64,000 nt of DNA. Source: Bacteroidales bacterium (GTDB lineage Bacteria; Bacteroidota; Bacteroidia; Bacteroidales; UBA1402). The stretch covers positions 81,997 to 145,996 of the forward strand of contig JAZQNO010000025.1 of NCBI GenBank assembly GCA_045627385.1, read 5' to 3'. Positions within the stretch are counted from its first letter, which is position 1, and every line of letters starts with the position of its first letter. Both the position numbers and the translations under genes were made by a program. The notes beneath the pieces were generated by a model. The model saw only the letters and a program-made list of their open reading frames with translations. It was not told where the DNA came from and made no database searches. Positions 4,014 through 59,867 of this stretch are shown piece after piece.

Positions 4014-5276
4014 ATGAAGGATATTTTTGAAAGAATTGCAGCCACACCGGGTCCACTCGGTCAGTACAAAGGAAATGCCGACGGCTATTTCATGTTCCCC
4101 AAACTCGAAGGTGAAATCGGACCGCACATGCGTTTCAACGGTAAGGACGTTCTTGTCTGGAGTCTCAACAACTATCTGGGTCTGGCCAACCGGCCCGAGG
4201 TCCGTGAAGCTGATGCACAAGGTGCCATTAAATATGGTATGGCTTCTCCCATGGGTGCCCGAATGATGTCGGGCGACACGGTCTACCACAAGAAACTCGA
4301 ACAGGATCTGGCCGATTTCGTAGGCAAGGAAGCCGGTTATCTGGTCAATTTCGGCTACCAGGCCATGATTTCCATCATCGACTGTCTGGTCAGCCGTCAC
4401 GACGTCATCGTATACGATTCCGAATCTCACGCCTGCATCATGGACGGCCTTCGCGTCGTGCTGGCCAAGCGTTTCATGTATATGCACAACGATATGGACA
4501 GCCTGCGCAAGCAGTTGCAGTCAGCTGCAGCTTTGGCTGAAAAGCAGGGCGGCGGTATCTTGGTCATCACCGAAGGTGTGTTCGGCATGGCCGGCGACTT
4601 GGGAAAACTCGATGAAATCGTAGCTCTTAAGAAGGAAGTACCCTTCCGCCTGCTCATCGACGACGCACACGGTTTCGGCACTATGGGCAAGACAGGTGCC
4701 GGTACTGGTGAACATTTCGGCGTGCAGGACGGTGTCGATGTCTATTTCGCCACTTTCGCCAAGAGTATGGCCGGTATCGGCGGTTTCGTCGCATCGCACC
4801 GCTATGTCATCGACAACCTCCGCTTCAACATGCGTTCCCAGATCTTCGCTAAATCACTACCTATGCCAATGGTGCTGGGCGCCCAGAAACGTCTCGACCT
4901 CATCAAGGCACAGCCCGAAATCCGCGAGCATCTTTGGGCAATCGTCAAAAAGCTTCAGAGCGGTCTCAAGGAACTCGGTTTCGACCTTGGCAACACCAAT
5001 TCGCCTGTCACTCCCGTCTATCTGAAGGGCGAGATGAACGTAGCCACCAACTTGGTCGTCGATCTCCGCGAAAACTACAACATCTTCTGTTCCATCACGG
5101 TCTATCCTGTGGTTCCGAAGGGCATCATTATGTTGCGCATCATTCCGACAGCCGCCCACAGCTTCGAAGATGTCGACTATACCCTCAAGACTTTCGCCAC
5201 CATCAAGAAAAAATACGACAATGGCGAATACGACAAGGAAATGCCCAATATGAACCTCATCAATAAGGAAGCCTGA
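4014..5276 (+). CDS. PLP-dependent alpha-oxoamine synthase, cysteate-C-fatty-acyltransferase-like (SulA/CapB type; could alternatively be a serine palmitoyltransferase)
   Basis: 420-aa ORF of the AONS/SPT/KBL family, with the PLP-lysine block ATFAKSMAGIGGF and DDAHGFG. Its stop overlaps the start of a cysteate-synthase-like gene (TGATG at 5274-5278). Confidence 0.75.
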   Translation: MKDIFERIAATPGPLGQYKGNADGYFMFPKLEGEIGPHMRFNGKDVLVWSLNNYLGLANRPEVREADAQGAIKYGMASPMGARMMSGDTVYHKKLEQDLADFVGKEAGYLVNFGYQAMISIIDCLVSRHDVIVYDSESHACIMDGLRVVLAKRFMYMHNDMDSLRKQLQSAAALAEKQGGGILVITEGVFGMAGDLGKLDEIVALKKEVPFRLLIDDAHGFGTMGKTGAGTGEHFGVQDGVDVYFATFAKSMAGIGGFVASHRYVIDNLRFNMRSQIFAKSLPMPMVLGAQKRLDLIKAQPEIREHLWAIVKKLQSGLKELGFDLGNTNSPVTPVYLKGEMNVATNLVVDLRENYNIFCSITVYPVVPKGIIMLRIIPTAAHSFEDVDYTLKTFATIKKKYDNGEYDKEMPNMNLINKEA

Positions 5277-50173: not shown

Positions 50174-50206
50174 GAAAGACGTTTGCCCATACCGGAAGTT
50201 TCGGAC

Positions 50207-50242
50207 GCCTTTCCTGCATCATGGTGGGGAAGGCTTTTTTTT
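50207..50242 (+). terminator. attenuator terminator upstream of ilvD
   Basis: GCCTTTCC (50207-50214) pairs with GGGAAGGC (within 50226-50234) and is followed by T8. The 5' arm can alternatively pair with AGGAAAGACG at 50172-50181. Confidence 0.7.
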
Positions 50243-50266
50243 AATGATTCAATTCGGAATAAGGAT

Positions 50267-52099
50267 ATGAAAATCGCATTGAGAAGCTCGGTTTGTACGG
50301 AAGGTCGCCGTATGGCTGCCGCGAGAGCCCTTTGGGCTGCCAATGGTATGAAGAAAGAACAGGTGGGCAAACCCATCATTGCTGTGGTCAATTCGTTCAC
50401 CCAGTTTGTTCCCGGTCACGTGCACCTGCACGAAATCGGTCAGGAAGTGAAGGCCGAGATCGAACGCCTGGGCTGCTTCGCCGCCGAGTTCGACACCATC
50501 GCCATCGACGACGGCATCGCCATGGGCCACGACGGCATGCTCTATTCGCTGCCCAGCCGCGACATCATCGCCGACAGCGTCGAATATATGGTCAATGCCC
50601 ACAAGGCCGATGCCATGGTGTGCATCAGCAACTGCGACAAAATCACCCCAGGCATGCTGATGGCCGCCATGAGACTCAACATCCCCACCATATTCGTCAG
50701 CGGAGGCCCGATGGAGGCCGGCGAGCTGGACGGAGGCCATCTGGACCTCATCGACGCGATGATCCAGTCGGCCGACCAAAGCGTTTCCGACGCTCAGATG
50801 GCCCGTGTGGAGGCCAGCGCTTGTCCGGGCTGCGGCTGCTGCTCGGGCATGTTCACCGCCAATTCCATGAACTGCCTCAACGAGGCGTTGGGTATGGCTC
50901 TTCCCGGCAACGGCACCATCCTGGCCGACCATGTCAACCGCCGGAAACTTTTCCTCAAGGCGGCCCGTCAGATTGTGAAGAATACCTTCGCCTATTACGA
51001 AGACGGTGACGAGTCGGTTCTGCCGCGTTCCATCGCCACCCGCGAAGCCTTCCTCAACGCCATGACGCTCGACATCGCCATGGGCGGTTCCACCAACACC
51101 GTGCTGCATCTGCTGGCCATCGCCCACGAGGCTGGAGTGGATTTCAGCATGGACGACATCGACATGCTTTCACGTCGGGTGCCCTGCCTGTGCAAGGTGG
51201 CTCCCAATACCAAACTGTTCCACGTGCAGGACGTCAACCGCGCCGGAGGCATCCATTCCATCCTGGGCGAACTGGCCAAGGCCGGACTCATTGAAACCGG
51301 AGTGAAACGGGTCGACGGTCAGACACTGGCCAAAGATCTGGAAGACTATTCCCTGTCGTCGCCGAAGGTGCTGGAGGAAGCCAAAGACTTCTATCTGAGC
51401 GCTCCTTCCCACCGGTTCAATATGAGTTTAGGCTCGCAGGATTCCCGTTTCGACAGTCTGGACACCGACCGCGCAAAGGGCTGCATCCGCGACATGGACC
51501 ACGCCTACACCAAGGACGGCGGTCTGGCCGTGCTCAAGGGCAACATCGCCCTCAACGGCTGTGTGGTCAAGACCGCGGGTGTGGACGAGTCCATCTGGAA
51601 ATTCAGCGGTCCCGCCAAAGTGTTCCATTCACAGGAAGACGCCTGCGAGGGCATCCTCGACGGCAGCGTCCGCTCGGGCGATGTGGTGCTGGTCATTTTC
51701 GAAGGCCCGAAAGGCGGTCCCGGCATGCAGGAAATGCTGTATCCCACCTCATACATCAAGTCGCGCCATCTGGGCAAAGAGTGCGCCCTCATCACCGACG
51801 GCCGCTTTTCAGGCGGCACCTCGGGCCTGTCCATCGGCCACGTTTCTCCCGAAGCCGCTTCAGGCGGAGCCATCGGACTGGTCCGCAACGGAGACATCAT
51901 CGACATCGACATCCCGGCCCGCAGCATCAGCGTGCGCCTGAGCGACGAAGCGCTGGCCCGTCGCCGCCGCGAGGAAGAGGCCAAAGGCCGTCTGGCCTTC
52001 AAGCCCGTCCGCGACCGTCAGGTCTCCCAATCATTGAAAGCCTACGCACAGGCCGTTTCGTCGGCCGATCTGGGTGCAGTCAGAATCATCGAAGACTAA
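50267..52099 (+). CDS. ilvD: dihydroxy-acid dehydratase
   Basis: 610 aa from the ATG at 50267 (MKIALRSS), with the Fe-S ligand block CDKITPGM. The track ORF start at 50183 runs through the attenuator. Confidence 0.95.
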
Positions 52100-52111
52100 T
52101 CAACTACCGAC

Positions 52112-53815
52112 ATGTCAGAAAGAATCAACGGAGCGGAAGCCTTGATGCGCTCCTTCAAGGAAGAGAATGTCAGAACCATCTTCGGATACCCGGGCGGATT
52201 CATCATCCCCGTATTCGATGCCTTATACTCCTATCAGAAAGAATTCGACTGCATTCTGAGCCGTCACGAGCAGGGTGCCGTCCATGCCGCCCAGGGCTAT
52301 GCCCGCGTGACGGGCGAACCGGGCGTGGTCATCGTCACTTCCGGACCGGCCGCCACCAACATCGTCACCGGCGCCGCCGACGCCATGCTCGACAGCACGC
52401 CTCTGGTCATCATCACCGGACAGTCCATCGTGGCCCAACTGGGTACCGACAGCTTCCAGGAAACCGACGTCATCGGCATCACCCAGCCGGTCACCAAATG
52501 GAGCTACCAGATACGCCGTGCGGAAGACCTGCCATGGGCGGTCGCCCGCGCCTTCTACATCGCCCGTGAAGGCCGTCCCGGACCGGTGGTGCTCGACCTG
52601 ACCAAGGATGCCCAGACACAGCTGCTCGACTTCGAATACAAGAAATGCCGCTTCATTCGCAGCTACCAGCCCTATCCGGCTCTCAACCGGACCGAAGTGG
52701 CCGAGGCCGCCCGCCTCATCAACGAATCGGAGAAGCCTTTGGCCGTAGTGGGGCAGGGCGTCATGCTGGGCCACGCCGAACAGGAACTCTATGCCTTTTT
52801 GGAAAAAGCCGGCATCCCGGCTGCTTCCACCCTCATGGGCCTCTCCATCATGTCCGACGATTATCCGCTCAACATGGGCATGGTGGGCATGCACGGCAAT
52901 GTGGCTCCCAACCGCATGACCAACCGGTGCGACGTGCTCATCGCCATCGGCATGCGCTTCTCCGACCGCGTGACCGGCGACATCCGCTCCTACGCTCCCC
53001 AGGCGAAAATCATCCATTTCGACATAGATCCCTCCGAACTCAACAAGAATGTCAAAGTCGACCAGACGGTGCTGGGCGACGTGAAGGCTTCGCTGCCGGC
53101 CGTGACCGCATTGCTGAAGCCGGCCAGACACACCGACTGGATAGAAAGTTTCAAACCTTTCCGCCAGCAGGAAGACCGCGAAGTCATCCAGCCCGAACTC
53201 CATCCTTCGGCTCAGCCGATAACGATGGCCGAGGCGGTGAAATGCGTGTCGGACCAGTCCGGTTCCAAGACCGTTCTCGTGGCCGATGTGGGACAGAACG
53301 AAATGATATCGGCCCGCTATTTCAGCGCGGGCCCCGGACGCCAGTTCATCGCCTCTGGCGGTCTGGGTACCATGGGCTTCTGCCTGCCTGCCGCCGTAGG
53401 TGCCGCATTGGGCGCTCCCGATGCCGAAATCTATGCCGTCTGCGGTGACGGCGGTTTCCAGATGACGGTTCAGGAACTGGGCACCATCATGCAGTATCAG
53501 CTGCCGGTGAAGATGCTCGTGCTCAACAACAGCTATCTGGGCATGGTACGCCAGTGGCAGGAACTTTTCTGGGACGAACGCTATTCGTCCACCCGCATGC
53601 AGAATCCCGATTTTGTCCGCCTGGCCTCGGCCTACGGCATAACCGGCCGTTCGGTAAGCCGCAGAGAAGAACTTTCCGAGGCTGTCGGCGAGATGATTGC
53701 CCACAAGGGCCCCTATCTGCTCGAAGTCAAGGTCGAGCAAAAGGGGTTGGTCTATCCGATGATTCCGGCCGGAAAACCCATCACCGACATCATCATGGGC
53801 AAAGAAACCAAGTAA
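52112..53815 (+). CDS. ilvB: acetolactate synthase large subunit (biosynthetic)
   Basis: 567 aa, a TPP enzyme with the GDGGFQM block. Confidence 0.93.
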   Translation: MSERINGAEALMRSFKEENVRTIFGYPGGFIIPVFDALYSYQKEFDCILSRHEQGAVHAAQGYARVTGEPGVVIVTSGPAATNIVTGAADAMLDSTPLVIITGQSIVAQLGTDSFQETDVIGITQPVTKWSYQIRRAEDLPWAVARAFYIAREGRPGPVVLDLTKDAQTQLLDFEYKKCRFIRSYQPYPALNRTEVAEAARLINESEKPLAVVGQGVMLGHAEQELYAFLEKAGIPAASTLMGLSIMSDDYPLNMGMVGMHGNVAPNRMTNRCDVLIAIGMRFSDRVTGDIRSYAPQAKIIHFDIDPSELNKNVKVDQTVLGDVKASLPAVTALLKPARHTDWIESFKPFRQQEDREVIQPELHPSAQPITMAEAVKCVSDQSGSKTVLVADVGQNEMISARYFSAGPGRQFIASGGLGTMGFCLPAAVGAALGAPDAEIYAVCGDGGFQMTVQELGTIMQYQLPVKMLVLNNSYLGMVRQWQELFWDERYSSTRMQNPDFVRLASAYGITGRSVSRREELSEAVGEMIAHKGPYLLEVKVEQKGLVYPMIPAGKPITDIIMGKETK

Positions 53816-53834: not shown

Positions 53835-54389
53835 ATGGAAAAGCAATTGTATACCATCAACGTGTATTCCGAAAATACGGTCGGTATCCTCAATCAGGTG
53901 ACCAATGTCTTCACGCGCCGTCAGGTCAACATCGAGAGCCTGACCGTGTCGCGCTCGTCGATTCCCGGAGTGCATAAATACACCATTACCGCCGAGACCG
54001 ACGAGGAGACCATTTCCAAGATGGTGCACCAGATCGAGCGCCGCATCGATGTGCTGAAGGCGTTCTATTACGTCGACGATGAAATCATTTTCCAGGAAAT
54101 CGCCCTGTACAAGATTTCCACCGACGTGGTGCTCGAACACGGGGCGCTGGAGGAAATCGTGCGCCGCTACAATGCGCGCATTCTCGAGCTGAACCGCACC
54201 TACACGGTCATCGAGCAGACGGGTCATGTGGAGGAAATCGAGCGTCTCTATCAGGAACTGCAACCGCTTGGCATCCTGCAGTTTGTGCGCTCCGGACGCA
54301 TCTCTATCACCAAATCGCCCATCGAGCGCCTGAACGAATTCCTCGAAGAAATGGAGTCCAAGCGCCAGGTCTGCGAACAACAGCCGTAA
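53835..54389 (+). CDS. ilvN: acetolactate synthase small (regulatory) subunit
   Basis: 184 aa with the N-terminal ACT domain YTINVYSENTVGILNQVTNVFTRR. Confidence 0.9.
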   Translation: MEKQLYTINVYSENTVGILNQVTNVFTRRQVNIESLTVSRSSIPGVHKYTITAETDEETISKMVHQIERRIDVLKAFYYVDDEIIFQEIALYKISTDVVLEHGALEEIVRRYNARILELNRTYTVIEQTGHVEEIERLYQELQPLGILQFVRSGRISITKSPIERLNEFLEEMESKRQVCEQQP

Positions 54390-54504
54390 CGGCATAGGTG
54401 AGTTGGGCTGTAAAAGGTTTGTTTGCTGACTTCTTAGCTGAAATGTCTGTCCTGTAATAATGGCGCATTATTTGTATGTTTTGATTACCGGTAGTGAATT
54501 ATAA

Positions 54505-54693
54505 GATTCGATTGGTAATGATTGTGTTACTGCATCGATGTCTGAATTAATAATACCACCAGGCAGAAAAGCAAAATTGAAAATCAATATTTCACCAAAT
54601 GCTGAAGGCGATTTTACGTGGTGTGTAGACATTAAAGGTCTTGATGATGTATCTCTTCAAATTTTTATATCGGCGACAGTGGTTGGTTTATGA
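54505..54693 (+). pseudogene. possible 3' remnant of a DUF1573-like gene
   Basis: The open frame reads DSIGNDCVTASMSELIIPPGRKAKLKINISPNAEGDFTWCVDIKGLDDVSLQIFISATVVGL*. It is bounded upstream by an in-frame TAA. The pattern resembles the C-terminal half of DUF1573 domains, judged from memory. Confidence 0.3.
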
Positions 54694-54721: not shown

Positions 54722-55060
54722 ATGAAAAGACTCCTATTTTCAATTCTATGTACAACAGTGATTATGGCTTTTTTATTCCTGATTCTATGTGTTGTGAGGA
54801 ATAGAACTATTTCTCCAATCGTAATGGTCAATGTCGAGGCATTGGGAGATTACGAATATCCTCACCAGAATAATCGTGGTACTTATGGTGGTATAGATGA
54901 TGATATGTGGCTGATATCAGAATGCTCTTTGCCCAGAGGCGAAGCCGAAAGTTGGTTTATTCTTCATGGGGGAGATTATAGCTGTTCGGGTTGGTGTTGT
55001 GACAGTTGTCATGAAACCTGGTATTGCGGCAATGGTGATATTGTTACTAATTGCAATTAA
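54722..55060 (+). CDS. signal-anchored Cys-rich peptide with NVEAL(G) motif (NVEALA-family-like), copy 1
   Basis: 112 aa with an N-terminal TM segment, NVEALG at residues 37-42 and a C-terminal region with 7 Cys ending GWCCDSCHETWYCGNGDIVTNCN. Confidence 0.85.
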   Translation: MKRLLFSILCTTVIMAFLFLILCVVRNRTISPIVMVNVEALGDYEYPHQNNRGTYGGIDDDMWLISECSLPRGEAESWFILHGGDYSCSGWCCDSCHETWYCGNGDIVTNCN

Positions 55061-55068
55061 TTCAATGA
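55014..55068. repeat. 55-nt block 100% identical to 56609-56663 (peptide 3' end + junction + lipoprotein ATG)
   Basis: By direct comparison, both copies read AAACCTGGTATTGCGGCAATGGTGATATTGTTACTAATTGCAATTAATTCAATGA. Confidence 0.9.
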
Positions 55069-56252
55069 GAAACACGTCCTATTTATTCTTGTTGACTGGC
55101 GTGGTTTTGTCATTGTCGTCCTGTCGGCACCGGGAGGTAGATGACAAAGTGTATATGGCAGACTCGACTGGAATCGTATTCGACTATGATCTGGAAAAGG
55201 CTGCTGCAAATGATTCGATGATCTCTATAAGTCAGATTGTCGATTCTGTCGTTTACATTCCTTTGGAATTTGACATTCTTGCCTCCTTGAGACCCGACTA
55301 CCTGATGACTGTCGAGACTGACGAGGGCTTTGTCGTTTCTTCCAATTCCACGCAGGGTTTCAATGGTGTTTTTCAGTTCGACAAGAACGGCAGATACCAA
55401 AAGACACTTGTCGGAAAAGGCCATGGCCACAACGAATTGGTCCCGTATTTCTACAATTGGTCATACAATGAGACTGAAAAACTGATTGTTTTGAGTGGAA
55501 GGGGTTATTACTGCGAACTCAATGCAGAAACCGGAGAAGTGAGCATGCTGAAAAAGTCAGAATATGCCTATCAGACCATGATTCTTGTTGAAAACAAGCG
55601 GTTTCTGGCTCTTCCTGTGGAGGATGATCCCCAGATTCCATTTCTTGTGCTGACTGACTCGGACGGGAGCACTGTCGCGAAATATTTCACTAAACATAAG
55701 AAAAACGCCTACGCCGAAACTCCGCAATCTGGTTGGAGTCCGACCGAACATCGTATATTGGATCAGGACAAGCAAGGCCGACCGTTGTTCAAGGATATGT
55801 ACAATGATACCGTCTATGCATGGTCGGACAAAGGTCTTCAGCCGGCTTTCTGCCTGAATGCCGGAGACCTGAATCCCAAAGTGAAAGATGCTGGAAAGAG
55901 CGTAAGAAAAGGACAACAGGTGTTTGTCTATCATGTGGCCACAGTTGGAAAGTATCTTCTATGCTTTTATCATTACAACGGCAATCGGGCGGAAAGCGTT
56001 TTCGATATGGAAACTGGAAAACTCGTTGCCAATGAGCGATTGCCCATCCATGCAAGGGGTGTTGATTTGTGGAAGACAAGGTCGCCCCATTTTGTGTCTT
56101 TGGATACTCCGACGGGAAAACGTATCCTGGTCGGTGTCACATGGGCTTCAGGTGATTGCCTGTATGGAGTGGTGAACCCGTCGGACGTTTCGGATTTTCT
56201 TGAAGTGGATGCCGATTCCAACCCGGTCCTGGTGAAAATGTATCTGAACTGA
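55065..56252 (+). CDS. beta-propeller-type lipoprotein (6-bladed propeller / BF3164-like family, from memory), copy 1
   Basis: 395 aa from the ATG at 55065. It has the lipoprotein signal LSLSSC and a GKGHGHNEL block. It starts 4 nt after the peptide stop. Confidence 0.85.
   Translation: MRNTSYLFLLTGVVLSLSSCRHREVDDKVYMADSTGIVFDYDLEKAAANDSMISISQIVDSVVYIPLEFDILASLRPDYLMTVETDEGFVVSSNSTQGFNGVFQFDKNGRYQKTLVGKGHGHNELVPYFYNWSYNETEKLIVLSGRGYYCELNAETGEVSMLKKSEYAYQTMILVENKRFLALPVEDDPQIPFLVLTDSDGSTVAKYFTKHKKNAYAETPQSGWSPTEHRILDQDKQGRPLFKDMYNDTVYAWSDKGLQPAFCLNAGDLNPKVKDAGKSVRKGQQVFVYHVATVGKYLLCFYHYNGNRAESVFDMETGKLVANERLPIHARGVDLWKTRSPHFVSLDTPTGKRILVGVTWASGDCLYGVVNPSDVSDFLEVDADSNPVLVKMYLN
56159..56248. 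repeat. 90-nt block identical except 1 nt to 57779-57868 (3' ends of the two lipoprotein genes)
   Basis: It encodes LYGVVNPSDVSDFLEVDADSNPVLVKMYL in both copies. The single difference is G/A in AACCC[G/A]GTCC. Confidence 0.9.
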
Positions 56253-56310
56253 GATTACTCTGCTAAAATTCTTGAGCGGACAAAACTACAATTTCTAAAA
56301 ATTAAATGTT

Positions 56311-56655
56311 ATGAAAAATAAACTTATTTCTATTATTTGCGCAACAATGATTGTGTCCTGTTTGTTTCTCATCATATGTATTGTGAGAAATAAAATGATA
56401 TCACCAATGGTAATTGCCAACGTCGAGGCATTGGGAGATTACGAATATCCTCATCAAAACAATCAAGGAACTTGTGGTTATGGTGGCATCGATTATGATA
56501 TGTGGTTGATTTCAGAGTGTTCTTTGCCCCAAAGTGTAGCAATTGAGTGGTATAATAATAACCGCGGCAAGCACGGATGTATGGGTTGGTGTTGTGAGAG
56601 TTGCTCTCAAACCTGGTATTGCGGCAATGGTGATATTGTTACTAATTGCAATTAA
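56311..56655 (+). CDS. signal-anchored Cys-rich peptide with NVEAL(G) motif, copy 2
   Basis: 114 aa with the same architecture as copy 1. It has 8 Cys after the NVEALG motif and the identical tail TWYCGNGDIVTNCN. Confidence 0.85.
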   Translation: MKNKLISIICATMIVSCLFLIICIVRNKMISPMVIANVEALGDYEYPHQNNQGTCGYGGIDYDMWLISECSLPQSVAIEWYNNNRGKHGCMGWCCESCSQTWYCGNGDIVTNCN

Positions 56656-56663
56656 TTCAATGA
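56609..56663. repeat. partner of the 55-nt identical block at 55014-55068
   Basis: Established by direct comparison of the two sequences. Confidence 0.9.
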
Positions 56664-57862
56664 AAAAGACTTTCTGTTTGCCCCTGATGATTGGTGCAGT
56701 GCTGTCATTGCCGTCCTGTCGGCACCGGGAGGCTGACAAAGCGGTGTCTGGTGCAGCTGTTGGGCAGTCCGTTGCCGGCATCTGCTCTTTTGACTTGTCG
56801 TCCGCCGTCGTGAAAGACACATCCGTTTTAATCAACGGCATTGTCGATTCCTTTGAATACATACCCTTGGAATTTAATTTGGACGCCTCTTTGCAACTGG
56901 AATATCTGATGACCGCAGAAACGGAAAACGGACTGCTGGTTTCCAACAATTGTGCCAGGTGGTTCAGAGGCGTTTTTCTGTTTGGCAAATCTGGAGATTT
57001 TAAATCAACGCTCATCGGATTGGGCCATGGGCACAACGAATTGTCACCAGACTTCTACGGGTGGGCATACGACAGGTACAAAGGAGAATTGCTGATGCTT
57101 GGCCGAGGCATTTGTTATGTCTTCAACTGCAGGTCGAATGAAGGCAGGCTTCTCAAAGCGGATGACGCTTTTATGGATATCGTCCCGACTGACGGAGACG
57201 TGTATCTGGTCAGGCCGGCAAGCGCCTCAAAGGAAGGAAACCCCTTCCTGAAACTGGTCAGCGGTAAGGGAACCGCAGTCAAGGAATTCCGGTATGAAAA
57301 CAAGATGTCTGTCTACTACGAGGTGCCCACGGCGGATTTCGGTCCGAACGAGCATCGTCTGTTGAAACAAGGAGGAAGTGGAGAAGCCTTGTTCAAAGAC
57401 ATGTTCAACGACACAATCTATGTGCTCGAACACGATGTCCTTCATCCGCGTTATTGTCTGGAAACGGGAAGTAAGCGTCCGAATGTCAAGGATGTGTTGA
57501 ATAAGAAAAAGAAAGCCGGGCAAATTTACCTCTCCGATATCGCGACAGCTGGCGATTATCTGCTATGTCAGTACGAATACGCAGGAGAACCTTTCAATCA
57601 ACTGGTTTTTGAAATCTCCACCGGAAAGGTGGTGGCCGCATCCCATTTCGGGCTGGACATGCGTGGGGCCGGAACGGTTCACGCCTTCAGAAACAGGTTC
57701 CCTTTCCAGTTGCAGACTCCCACCGGACATGTCATCTGGATGGGTATGACAGCTGTCGGAGAAAGCATCCTGTATGGAGTGGTGAACCCGTCGGACGTTT
57801 CGGATTTTCTTGAAGTGGATGCCGATTCCAACCCAGTCCTGGTGAAAATGTATCTGAAATAA
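56660..57862 (+). CDS. beta-propeller-type lipoprotein, copy 2
   Basis: 400 aa from the ATG at 56660. It has the lipoprotein signal LSLPSC and a GLGHGHNEL block. It starts 4 nt after the peptide stop. Confidence 0.85.
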   Translation: MKKTFCLPLMIGAVLSLPSCRHREADKAVSGAAVGQSVAGICSFDLSSAVVKDTSVLINGIVDSFEYIPLEFNLDASLQLEYLMTAETENGLLVSNNCARWFRGVFLFGKSGDFKSTLIGLGHGHNELSPDFYGWAYDRYKGELLMLGRGICYVFNCRSNEGRLLKADDAFMDIVPTDGDVYLVRPASASKEGNPFLKLVSGKGTAVKEFRYENKMSVYYEVPTADFGPNEHRLLKQGGSGEALFKDMFNDTIYVLEHDVLHPRYCLETGSKRPNVKDVLNKKKKAGQIYLSDIATAGDYLLCQYEYAGEPFNQLVFEISTGKVVAASHFGLDMRGAGTVHAFRNRFPFQLQTPTGHVIWMGMTAVGESILYGVVNPSDVSDFLEVDADSNPVLVKMYLK

Positions 57863-57889: not shown

Positions 57890-57897
57890 TATCTTTG
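57890..57897 (+). promoter_or_regulatory. -7 box TATCTTTG upstream of ilvC
   Basis: It matches TAnnTTTG and lies 52 nt upstream of the ilvC ATG. Confidence 0.45.
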
Positions 57898-57948: not shown

Positions 57949-58992
57949 ATGGCAAAAATGAATTTTGGCGGTGTCATTGAAAATGTTGTGACCCGCGAAG
58001 AGTTTACACTGGCTAAGGCCCGCGAAATTTTGAAAGACGAAACCATTGCAGTCATCGGTTACGGTGTGCAGGGTCCCGGTCAGTCTCAGAACCTGCGTGA
58101 CAACGGTTTTCGCGTGATTGTCGGTCAGCGTCCCGGCAAGACCTACGACAAGGCTGTCGCCGACGGTTGGAAACCCGGCGAAACGCTGTTCGGCATTGAA
58201 GAAGCCTGCCAGAAGGGCAGCATCATCATGTGTCTGCTTTCCGACGCGGCCGTCATGTCGGTATGGCCCACCATCAAACCTTATCTGACCGCCGGAAAGG
58301 CACTTTATTTCTCCCACGGTTTCGCCATCACTTGGAACGACCGCACCGGTTGCGTTCCTCCCGCAGATATCGACGTCATCATGGTGGCCCCCAAGGGATC
58401 GGGCACCTCGCTTCGCACGATGTTCCTCGAAGGCCGTGGCCTGAATTCCTCCTATGCCGTCTATCAGGATGTGACCGGCAAGGCTATGGACCGCACCCTG
58501 GCACTGGGTATCGGCATCGGCTCGGGTTATATGTTCGAGACCACATTCCAGCGCGAGGCCACTTCCGACCTTACCGGCGAACGCGGTTCTCTGATGGGTG
58601 CCATCCAGGGACTGCTGCTGGCCCAGTACGAAGTGCTCCGCGAGAACGGACACACTCCCTCGGAAGCTTTCAACGAGACCGTCGAAGAACTCACCCAGAG
58701 CCTTGGACCGCTCTTCGCCCAGAAAGGCATGGACTGGATGTACGCCAACTGCTCGACCACTGCCCAGCGCGGCGCTCTCGACTGGATGGGTCCCTTCCAC
58801 GACGCCATCAAGCCGGTTGTCGAAAAACTCTATGCCAGCGTCAAGTGCGGCAATGAAGCACAGATATCCATCGACAGCAATTCCAAGCCCGATTATCGTG
58901 TCGGCCTTGAGAAGGAACTGCAGGCTCTCCGCGAAAGCGAGATGTGGCAGGCCGGCGCTGTCGTCCGCAAACTCCGTCCCGAAAACAACTGA
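57949..58992 (+). CDS. ilvC: ketol-acid reductoisomerase (class I)
   Basis: 347 aa with the GYGVQGPGQSQNLRDNG nucleotide fold. Confidence 0.95.
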   Translation: MAKMNFGGVIENVVTREEFTLAKAREILKDETIAVIGYGVQGPGQSQNLRDNGFRVIVGQRPGKTYDKAVADGWKPGETLFGIEEACQKGSIIMCLLSDAAVMSVWPTIKPYLTAGKALYFSHGFAITWNDRTGCVPPADIDVIMVAPKGSGTSLRTMFLEGRGLNSSYAVYQDVTGKAMDRTLALGIGIGSGYMFETTFQREATSDLTGERGSLMGAIQGLLLAQYEVLRENGHTPSEAFNETVEELTQSLGPLFAQKGMDWMYANCSTTAQRGALDWMGPFHDAIKPVVEKLYASVKCGNEAQISIDSNSKPDYRVGLEKELQALRESEMWQAGAVVRKLRPENN

Positions 58993-59006
58993 TTTAACGA
59001 ATTTTG

Positions 59007-59051
59007 CAGCCGGTACAGCTTTTTTATGGGTTGTACCGGCTGTTTTGTTTT
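59007..59051 (+). terminator. rho-independent terminator after ilvC
   Basis: A perfect 11-bp stem CAGCCGGTACA...TGTACCGGCTG is followed by TTTTGTTTT. Confidence 0.8.
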
Positions 59052-59099: not shown

Positions 59100-59867
59100 A
59101 TGAAACGGATTGTTCTGCCTTTGCTGTTGGGCCTGTACTGCCTGTCCCTGACGGCTGCCGATTTCGAGCCCGAGTATCGGATGGGCTTCAAGGCCAGCCT
59201 GCGTGAATCGGTCAACAACTCTTTCTACCAATATTTCGAATATCCCGAAATCAGGGAAGACCTGGTCGTGAAAAAACGTTCGCGCCGTCAGATCGTGCAG
59301 TACGACTACGGAGAAGAAGCGCGCCAGGGCAGGGTGACAGTCCTTTTCAGCGTCTATCGAGGCGGCCGTATCACACGCATACAGGTGGTCAAAGGGCTCT
59401 GCCCCGAAATAGACCGCGAAGTGCGCCGTGCCATGAAGTCGGTCGCCTACGACCTCAGACTGGACGACCGTTTCAACGATGCGGAATACATCCAGAGCTT
59501 CTACATCAGTCCCGACGGCCGGAAGCGTACGGAAGTGCTGCGTGAGGAAAAAGTCTACATCAAAGCCGAAGAGCCGGCTGTTCCTCAGGGCGGTCGGGAA
59601 GGTCTGTCGCAGTTTGTCCGCGATCATCTGGAGTATCCCCAGCGGGCATTGGAAAACAATCAGAGCGGAGTGGTCGAAACCAATTTTCTGATTGACGAAG
59701 AAGGAAATGTGGCTGCCGGGTTTGTCTATTGCAGCGGCAACTCCGATCTGGACCGCGCAGCTTTAAGGCTGGTGGCCGAAATGCCGCAGATGACGCCTGC
59801 CCGTCAAAACGGACAATCGGTCAAATCCTGGTGGACCTGGCCGATTGTGTTCAATGTTCGTCGGTAA
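59100..59867 (+). CDS. TonB C-terminal-domain protein
   Basis: 255 aa with a signal peptide and a C-terminal TonB_C-like region (PQGGREGLSQFVRDHLEYPQRALENNQSGVVETNFLIDEEGNV). Confidence 0.7.
   Translation: MKRIVLPLLLGLYCLSLTAADFEPEYRMGFKASLRESVNNSFYQYFEYPEIREDLVVKKRSRRQIVQYDYGEEARQGRVTVLFSVYRGGRITRIQVVKGLCPEIDREVRRAMKSVAYDLRLDDRFNDAEYIQSFYISPDGRKRTEVLREEKVYIKAEEPAVPQGGREGLSQFVRDHLEYPQRALENNQSGVVETNFLIDEEGNVAAGFVYCSGNSDLDRAALRLVAEMPQMTPARQNGQSVKSWWTWPIVFNVRR

Follow-up and report, generated by a model that had tools for sequence, protein, structure and literature searches.

Among the known systems closest to the peptides discussed here are the bacteroidetocins, bacteriocins of class IIf (Coyne et al. 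2019, PMC6671954) that target BamA (PMC8546649). Besides the peptide itself, their loci encode a thiol oxidoreductase, a transporter, and a protein with five transmembrane segments, with neither a lipoprotein nor an immunity protein, and the producers are not immune (PMC6671954). Similarly, a study mining Bacteroidales genomes for ribosomally synthesized and post-translationally modified peptides found no immunity genes, and it mentions neither propellers nor lipoproteins. Here we describe another kind of arrangement, present in a stretch of 64,000 nucleotides (nt) from a Bacteroidales bacterium (GenBank assembly GCA_045627385.1, contig JAZQNO010000025.1, positions 81,997 to 145,996), which will be referred to as the window. 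It contains two tandem cassettes inserted between the genes ilvN and ilvC, each of them formed by a gene for a small Cys-rich peptide (pep1 and pep2) followed by a gene for a predicted beta-propeller lipoprotein (lipo1 and lipo2). The peptide and the lipoprotein are very probably functional partners, as their genes are again found side by side in independent loci that are only distantly related.

The likeness between the window peptides and the bacteroidetocins is one of general description, no sequence similarity having been looked for or seen. Both would be small Cys-containing peptides secreted by Bacteroidales, and relatives of the window peptides are found with double-glycine (GG) leaders and with VKOR/thioredoxin and HlyD-type neighbours. 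However, contrary to the bacteroidetocins, the window peptides have no GG leader, are flanked by ilvN and ilvC, and come each with a dedicated lipoprotein.

Two catalogued families are shared by the proteins of the window and those of other Bacteroidales. The lipoproteins resemble the DUF5128 family and its solved member 4RAA (BF0058 from B. fragilis, obtained by structural genomics) in their above-threshold scores, fold, profile matches, and lipoprotein signal. Even so, within DUF5128 at large they represent a very isolated subfamily of a family without assigned function, for which we found no description of a peptide partner. The peptides, in turn, resemble the small Bacteroides proteins of the NVEALA family (PF14055) in having a hydrophobic N terminus followed by the motif N-V-E-A-L-(G/S/A). 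Members of NVEALA are shorter, normally about 66-85 amino acids (aa), whereas the window peptides have 112-114 aa, score below the threshold of the family, and carry a 70-aa Cys-rich core with a WCC[D/E]SC motif that lies outside the NVEALA model.

A further system to compare is the "GG-Bacteroidales peptide system" of Haft (TIGR04148, TIGR04149, TIGR04150, and TIGR04157). The resemblance consists of a TIGR04157 glycosyltransferase encoded beside a propeller in one related locus (L017) and of the GG leaders of several partner peptides. Contrary to that system, the window peptides do not match TIGR04149, and no radical-SAM gene was seen in the loci examined. To our knowledge, the propeller is not part of this system as described. 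Finally, a functional analogy can be drawn with the LanI lipoproteins of lantibiotic systems (NisI, SpaI), membrane-tethered proteins encoded beside a secreted peptide toxin, which bind the toxin and protect the producer. The LanI proteins belong to Gram-positive systems and their fold is unrelated, so that no similarity in sequence or structure would be expected, the analogy being only functional and immunity being, in our case, a prediction. A literature search returned no paper mentioning NVEALA or DUF5128, and none combining propeller, bacteriocin, and VKOR in Bacteroides. This agrees with an earlier note on this stretch of DNA, which had taken the lipoprotein family as uncharacterised, and the Pfam entries involved are of the DUF type. 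The pairing of peptide and propeller appears to be undescribed, even though both domain families are catalogued.

The recurrence of the pairing was established in a metagenome scan with the propeller family, which returned 14 loci. In all, counting the window, a small Cys-rich open reading frame (ORF) stands immediately before the propeller gene, in the same orientation, in twelve cases spread over nine loci: two in the window, three in L019, and one in each of L006, L009, L010, L020, L021, L022, and L023. The suggestion of the earlier note that peptide and lipoprotein form a functional pair has therefore gained considerable ground. The propellers of the distant loci are only 20-30% identical to those of the window, and most of the peptides preceding them share with the window peptides the core pattern GTCG...WCC[D/E]SC...YCGNG. 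A WCC motif is present in nine partner peptides, in seven of them as WCC[D/E]SC. L019 encodes three consecutive peptide-propeller pairs, whose propellers are about 22-29% identical to each other; in L010, an NVEALS peptide carries a GWCC motif; and the L009 contig starts with the end of a peptide (...GYCDCGGSC, followed by the stop codon), about 125 nt upstream of the propeller gene P0016. Instead of an NVEAL-type N terminus, most of the distant-locus peptides bear a GG-type leader. This is the case of the homologous cores in L019, L020, L022, and L023, with weak matches to TIGR01847, and the GG-leader peptide of L023 matches the pep1 core with an E-value of 3e-8.

These modules seem to be inherited as units. 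Pairwise similarities among peptides track those among propellers (Spearman 0.57, for pairs that are not independent), and the peptide P0015, partner of a lipoprotein of the lipo2 type in L006, carries the variable block of pep2 (EWYNNNRGK) and not that of pep1 (SWFILHGGD). Sequence comparison thus shows that peptide and propeller modules were inherited together, which agrees with the co-variation anticipated in the earlier note but does not by itself prove co-evolution. Among the propeller genes examined, about half lack a neighbouring peptide gene; many of these are second copies in tandem arrays. A metagenome scan starting from the peptides found nothing.

The neighbourhoods of the distant loci provide further information about these systems. 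HlyD and VKOR/thioredoxin genes are located upstream of the three L019 pairs, and thioredoxin-type genes are found upstream in L020 and L021. L017 combines a weak C39-like match with VKOR, a LanC-like gene, and the TIGR04157 glycosyltransferase (468 bits, cutoff 400). Fragments of LanC-like genes (PF05147) and a TIGR04157-family glycosyltransferase lie directly downstream of the propeller genes of L017 (2976-5043) and L018 (6423-6701), a hint that some of the partner peptides are post-translationally modified. In two unrelated loci, L010 (3214-7083) and L012-L014, the propeller gene is directly upstream of three genes resembling those for TolC, a membrane-fusion protein, and an RND pump, as read from ORF translations only. 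This adjacency may represent a link to peptide export or to efflux-mediated immunity.

The window peptides are 68% identical to each other and have the same architecture. In pep1, a hydrophobic N-terminal segment (residues 7-25) is followed by an NVEALG motif and a 70-aa core with seven Cys and a net charge of -10, which ends in GWCCDSCHETWYCGNGDIVTNCN. The core of pep2 has eight Cys and a net charge of -6, and ends in GWCCESCSQTWYCGNGDIVTNCN. In both peptides, NVEALG follows a hydrophobic segment of 19 residues with a mean Kyte-Doolittle hydropathy of 2.8-2.9. The A-L-G end of this motif would fit the -3/-1 rule of signal peptidase I, albeit at an unusually long distance from the hydrophobic core. 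A homologue of pep2 (P0015, 68% identical) precedes the L006 lipoprotein, with NLEALS as its version of the motif, and the peptide of L010 has NVEALS. Pep2, P0015, and the L010 peptide match NVEALA weakly, with E-values of about 1e-4. None of the scores determined reaches the gathering threshold of 27 bits: pep2 obtains 20.4 bits (E 4e-4), pep1 10.2 bits (E 0.66), and P0015 22.6 bits. The CCGSCS model TIGR04101 matches pep2 with 21 bits over 24 residues, below its curated cutoff of 28, and does not match pep1. As for TIGR04149, no NCBIfam match was obtained for the window peptides (E <= 1) or for those of L019, L020, and L021 (E <= 0.1). A close-homologue search of 5.8 billion clusters found one peptide. 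In a collection of 15 billion proteins, the sequences of pep1 and pep2 are absent and both lipoproteins of the same contig are present (P0001, which is lipo1, and P0003), so the annotation of the source genome probably lacks the peptide genes.

Regarding the lipoproteins, the beta-propeller proposed in the earlier note is backed by three lines of evidence. First, lipo1 and lipo2 match DUF5128 (PF17170) with 35.7 and 27.6 bits, respectively, both above the gathering threshold of 22.9. Second, an AlphaFold2 model based on a 32-sequence alignment is all-beta, with a pLDDT of 86.1 and a pTM of 0.84, superseding a previous run with 5 sequences (pLDDT 68). Third, the best Foldseek match of the model is 4RAA (E 7e-16, TM-scores 0.62/0.68), followed by NHL and WD40 propellers. 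A sequence profile also matches 4RAA (E 7e-7) and the NHL repeats of Thin, TRIM2, and Brat; the profile was needed, as a single-sequence search against solved structures gave only noise. The prediction of an NHL-type beta-propeller, putatively six-bladed, is supported by these results. The family is very divergent. The close-homologue search mentioned above found four lipoproteins only, to which an alignment query added one distant match, and a search of 1.84 billion proteins with a profile of seven close homologues retrieved 283 representative clusters, of which 26 had E <= 1e-30. In the 32-member alignment, the only invariant positions are the start Met, Cys20, G109, G119, E124, D248, Y367, and N386. 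Cys20 would be the lipid-modified residue; the lipoprotein signal is present in about 95% of 39 full-length family sequences, and Cys20 is conserved in 95% of the same set. The G.G..E motif can be aligned with that of the NHL repeat, and the invariant residues of the propeller are likely to be structural and not catalytic. The reading of the propeller as a PAL- or lyase-like enzyme was dropped as leading idea because these residues fall in NHL structural motifs. Bacteroidetes have an acidic lipoprotein export signal, and the residues following the lipobox Cys are mostly basic or polar in this family; the lipoprotein would therefore probably face the periplasm.

The two lipoproteins of the window have the lipoboxes LSLSSC and LSLPSC, followed in each case by RHRE, and share the blocks YIPLEF, GHGHNEL, LFKDM.NDT.Y, and YLLC, and an identical C terminus of 29 residues, all of which had been correctly described before. 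Outside the conserved ends they are more similar than the one third that the earlier note had estimated by eye: the identity is 44% overall and about 39% between these ends (131/334, summed alignment blocks). Sequence comparison identifies lipo1 and lipo2 as old paralogues. Orthologues of the two occur in further metagenome contigs of Bacteroidales and in one goat-rumen metagenome-assembled genome (MAG). Lipo1, P0002, and P0012 (61% identical) constitute type A, and lipo2 and the P0004 group (58-60% identical) constitute type B.

That these paralogues are diverged except at both ends is a correct observation, but not a functional signature. The ends coincide with tracts of nearly identical DNA (Table 1), and in the last 28 codons 25 of 26 codons for identical residues also match at the nucleotide level, against 63 of 128 in the middle of the gene (summed blocks). 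Moreover, the C terminus shared in the window differs from that of both orthologue lineages. Being identical even at synonymous sites, the conserved ends are the result of recent gene conversion and not of additional constraint on the protein. This corrects a tempting misreading, since conserved ends of tandem paralogues need not mean functional constraint. The TTCA spacer, proposed in the earlier note as a sign of stoichiometric co-expression, lies inside one of these tracts and is absent from relatives, which makes its identity in the two cassettes a by-product of the same process. In other loci, the same ends are the points at which cassettes recombine when they are exchanged or lost. The type-B lipoprotein of L006 begins with another signal peptide, which extends as far as the SSSCRHK block, and L007 contains a type-B gene (4510-4848, + strand) with an in-frame internal deletion that keeps the signal peptide and the last 40 residues or so.

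Some of the relatives found at the ilvC site encode the lipoprotein without the peptide. In L001, P0004 (an orthologue of lipo2, with about 58-60% identity) is located directly upstream of ilvC, and so is a type-B lipoprotein in L008, a Bacteroidales MAG from goat reticulum, with no peptide ORF in either case. In L005 and L007, only 6 nt separate the deleted type-B copy from a type-A lipoprotein gene downstream of it, intact in L007, and the peptide is again absent. A scan of the GTDB genomes returned a single locus, in a goat-rumen MAG. L006, on the other hand, presents the order DUF1573 gene, peptide gene (P0015), and type-B lipoprotein gene, with a spacer of 82 nt before the last. The invariant peptide-then-lipoprotein order and 4-nt spacer of the earlier note thus hold inside the window but not among its relatives, four of which have no peptide at this site (L001, L005, L007, L008), while the spacers of the others measure 82 nt (L006, the closest relative) or roughly 90-220 nt (distant relatives). 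Between the window and L001, the identity is 92.5% for ilvC, 81% for the aminotransferase, and 60% for the type-B lipoprotein. The region upstream of the type-B lipoprotein and ilvC looks like a variable integration hotspot. A toxin-antitoxin pair formed by a HipA_C kinase and a HipB-like helix-turn-helix protein is encoded immediately 5' of the orphan lipoprotein in L001 (3110-4813), L007 (2789-4423), and L008 (4096-5799), on the minus strand in all three.

Taking all this into account, the role that suits the propeller lipoprotein best is immunity, a proposal that we hold tentatively, its chances being somewhat short of even. It is favoured because of the orphan lipoproteins at the same site, the peptide-then-lipoprotein order, the use of one propeller per peptide, the fast divergence of the propellers, and a fold typical of binding proteins. 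Co-oriented adjacent pairs together with an orphan lipoprotein upstream of ilvC (L001, L007, L008) are the genomic arrangement sought for a toxin-immunity system, and lipoproteins without peptide favour immunity over an obligate complex. In the mechanism that we propose, the peptide would be exported into the periplasm through its hydrophobic NVEALA-like segment, probably by the Sec pathway, which would make a dedicated exporter dispensable. A possible cleavage after the A-L-G end of the motif would then free an anionic core of about 70 residues with disulfide-forming Cys. The lipoprotein, a degenerate NHL-type propeller probably facing the periplasm, would bind its cognate peptide and protect the producer from its putative toxicity, and strains with only the lipoprotein would be immune non-producers. 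The cassettes descend from the old lineages A and B, their ends having been homogenised by gene conversion and used as recombination junctions. A more general version of this proposal, according to which peptides with a WCC[D/E]SC core and DUF5128-type propellers form an unrecognised polymorphic toxin/immunity system of Bacteroidales, is conceivable but rather doubtful. In such a system, each NHL-type propeller would confer immunity specifically to its own cognate peptide. Delivery would occur either by GG leader and exporter or by a Sec-type NVEALA-like leader, and exchange at the lipobox and C-terminal junctions would leave immune non-producers behind.

Several observations weigh against the bacteriocin and immunity proposal. 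Classic membrane-active bacteriocins are cationic, whereas the window cores have a strong negative charge (-6 and -10), the number of Cys in the pep1 core is odd, and a Sec-exported peptide would still have to cross the outer membrane, for which there is no known route. Bacteroides have been reported to lack a general disulfide machinery (PMC6671954). Searches of the window by tblastn with proteins from the related loci found no homologues of VKOR/thioredoxin, C39-like, LanC-like, glycosyltransferase, or HlyD proteins, peptidase-ABC transporters not having been searched as such. The peptide genes are missing from the protein collection, and several peptide-less propellers adjoin VKOR, LanC-like, or RND/TolC genes (L010, L012, L017, L018), which would fit maturation or export equally well. 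As for the occurrence of either gene on its own, raised in the earlier note as an argument against the pairing, the lipoprotein does occur without the peptide, whereas no peptide without propeller was seen among loci that were all retrieved through the propeller.

The alternative that best survives is that the propeller lipoprotein acts in the maturation, folding, or export of the peptide, either as a periplasmic chaperone or by handing it over to an efflux or outer-membrane route. We consider it unlikely, although with an appreciable chance of being right. A Sec-exported peptide needs an exit from the periplasm, and relatives of the propeller are found in biosynthesis-like clusters (VKOR/thioredoxin, LanC-like, TIGR04157) even where no peptide is adjacent (L017, L018), as well as directly upstream of the TolC, fusion-protein, and RND-like genes of L010 and L012-L014, which were recognised from ORF translations only. 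The small number of residues that are invariant across such a divergent family points in the same direction. However, close relatives among the contigs keep the lipoprotein alone at this very site, the use of one propeller per peptide, as in the divergent trio of L019, would be unusual for a processing enzyme, and the invariant residues map to NHL-type structural motifs, with no obvious catalytic set among them.

Less probable, indeed improbable, is that the peptide remains anchored in the membrane by its N-terminal helix and forms with the lipoprotein a stable and non-antagonistic complex of the envelope, devoted to ligand or metal capture or to signalling. The hydrophobic segment, of some 19-22 residues with basic residues on both sides and the high hydropathy given above, is anchor-like rather than that of a classic signal peptide, the core is acidic and Cys-rich, and the searches of the window yielded no homologue of a transporter or an oxidoreductase. 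Nevertheless, homologous cores elsewhere have cleavable GG-type leaders and HlyD-type neighbours, implying a released peptide, the lipoproteins also occur without the peptide, and no signalling genes are adjacent. Finally, that the adjacency has no meaning, the peptide ORFs being non-coding or the pairing being a residue of local tandem duplication, is very hard to believe: it could invoke the absence of the peptides from a collection that contains the lipoproteins of the same contig and the origin of the identical window junctions in gene conversion, but three close copies of the ORF are all intact and keep their Cys positions, at least six unrelated metagenome contigs have a homologous core ahead of a homologous propeller, with varied leaders and spacers, and one such gene (P0015) is a called gene in the Logan data.

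The features of the locus are listed in Table 1. The insert between ilvN and ilvC comprises 3.5 kb (54.4-57.9 kb), and its G+C content is 44.5%, against 57-58% in the flanking ilv genes. With this foreign composition, the segment is horizontally acquired DNA inside an amino-acid biosynthesis operon. The cassette region has no matches among plasmids, phages, and viral contigs, so a phage or plasmid origin is not supported, and a PADLOC scan for defence systems gave no hits. The start assigned to the feature in the earlier note (55065) is too late, as the first cassette begins at 54722, or at 54468 if the DUF1573 remnant is included.

Table 1. Coordinates of the genes, junctions, and identical tracts of the ilv locus in the window
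Feature	Position	Strand	Description
ilvD	50183-52099		Upstream ilv gene
ilvB	52112-53815		Upstream ilv gene
ilvN	53835-54389		Left flank of the insert
DUF1573 remnant	54468-54693	+	C-terminal fragment lacking an intact N terminus, with stops upstream; bounds the low-GC insert on the left
pep1	54722-55060	+	ORF, 112 aa
pep1/lipo1 junction	55058-55067	+	TAA-TTCA-ATG; 4-nt spacer, inside the 55-nt tract identical to the pep2/lipo2 junction
lipo1	55065-56252	+	Type-A propeller lipoprotein, 395 aa, lipobox LSLSSC (Cys20)
pep2	56311-56655	+	ORF, 114 aa, same architecture as pep1
pep2/lipo2 junction	56653-56662	+	TAA-TTCA-ATG
lipo2	56660-57862	+	Type-B propeller lipoprotein, 400 aa, lipobox LSLPSC
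ilvC	57949-58992		Right flank of the insert; followed by a TonB_C protein and an aminotransferase
Conversion tract 1	55014-55068 = 56609-56663	+	55 nt identical: peptide C terminus, stop, spacer, lipoprotein start
Conversion tract 2	56159-56248 vs 57769-57858	+	89/90 nt identical; last ~29 codons of both lipoproteins
Shorter identical tract	54833-54864 = 56422-56453		Exact-match scan
Shorter identical tract	54988-55002 = 56583-56597		Exact-match scan
Shorter identical tract	55117-55137 = 56712-56732		Exact-match scan; 21 nt, lipobox and CRHRE

The DUF1573 remnant is related to the protein encoded before the peptide gene in L006 (38% identity over 55 aa, E 1.7e-9, at 54520-54684 by tblastn), which belongs to Pfam DUF1573 with an E-value of 1.9e-14. 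Since this intact-looking gene lies directly 5' of a homologous peptide gene, the ancestral cassette may have included DUF1573 as its third member.

Upstream of their start codons, the reading frames of both lipoproteins are open for about 100-117 nt (54966-55064 and 56543-56659, + strand), overlapping the 3' end of the peptide gene in another frame. The encoded extension contains a hydrophobic stretch (..KPGIAAMVILLLIAINS), and the ORFs are accordingly listed as 428 and 439 aa. The shorter forms of 395 and 400 aa are backed by homologues and database entries. Dual coding was considered as the cause of the identical junctions and rejected, because in L006 the two genes do not overlap and are separated by 82 nt.

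Scans for sigma-70-type promoters and terminators gave only background levels inside the insert, and the Bacteroides-type -7 motif was not found when looked for upstream of pep1 and pep2. One such motif (TATCTTTG) is present in the spacer between lipo2 and ilvC (57890-57897, + strand), with a TTTG 24 nt upstream, so that ilvC may have its own promoter, and a strong terminator with a 16-bp stem (59006-59043, + strand) is located 3' of ilvC. An Rfam scan revealed no RNA elements in the insert, the sole Rfam match in the window being a tRNA gene (RF00005, 61156-61229, - strand, 63.6 bits). Downstream of ilvC, the TonB_C-domain protein (59100-59867, + strand) is 41% identical to its positional counterpart in L001, and comparison of the two sequences points to it as a second fast-evolving envelope gene at this locus.

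If the proposal of a bacteriocin-like peptide with its immunity lipoprotein is true, a subfamily of DUF5128 would acquire a function and the NVEALA-like small proteins possibly a lead, and the module so defined, compact and of only two genes, would be easy to test. The orphan lipoproteins would then be markers of competition at the strain level, and the propeller would represent the first dedicated immunity mechanism for a peptide bacteriocin of Bacteroidales. As a second family of peptides, with one lipoprotein partner for each of them, it would thus add to a picture of antagonism among gut and rumen Bacteroidales that is dominated by the bacteroidetocins.

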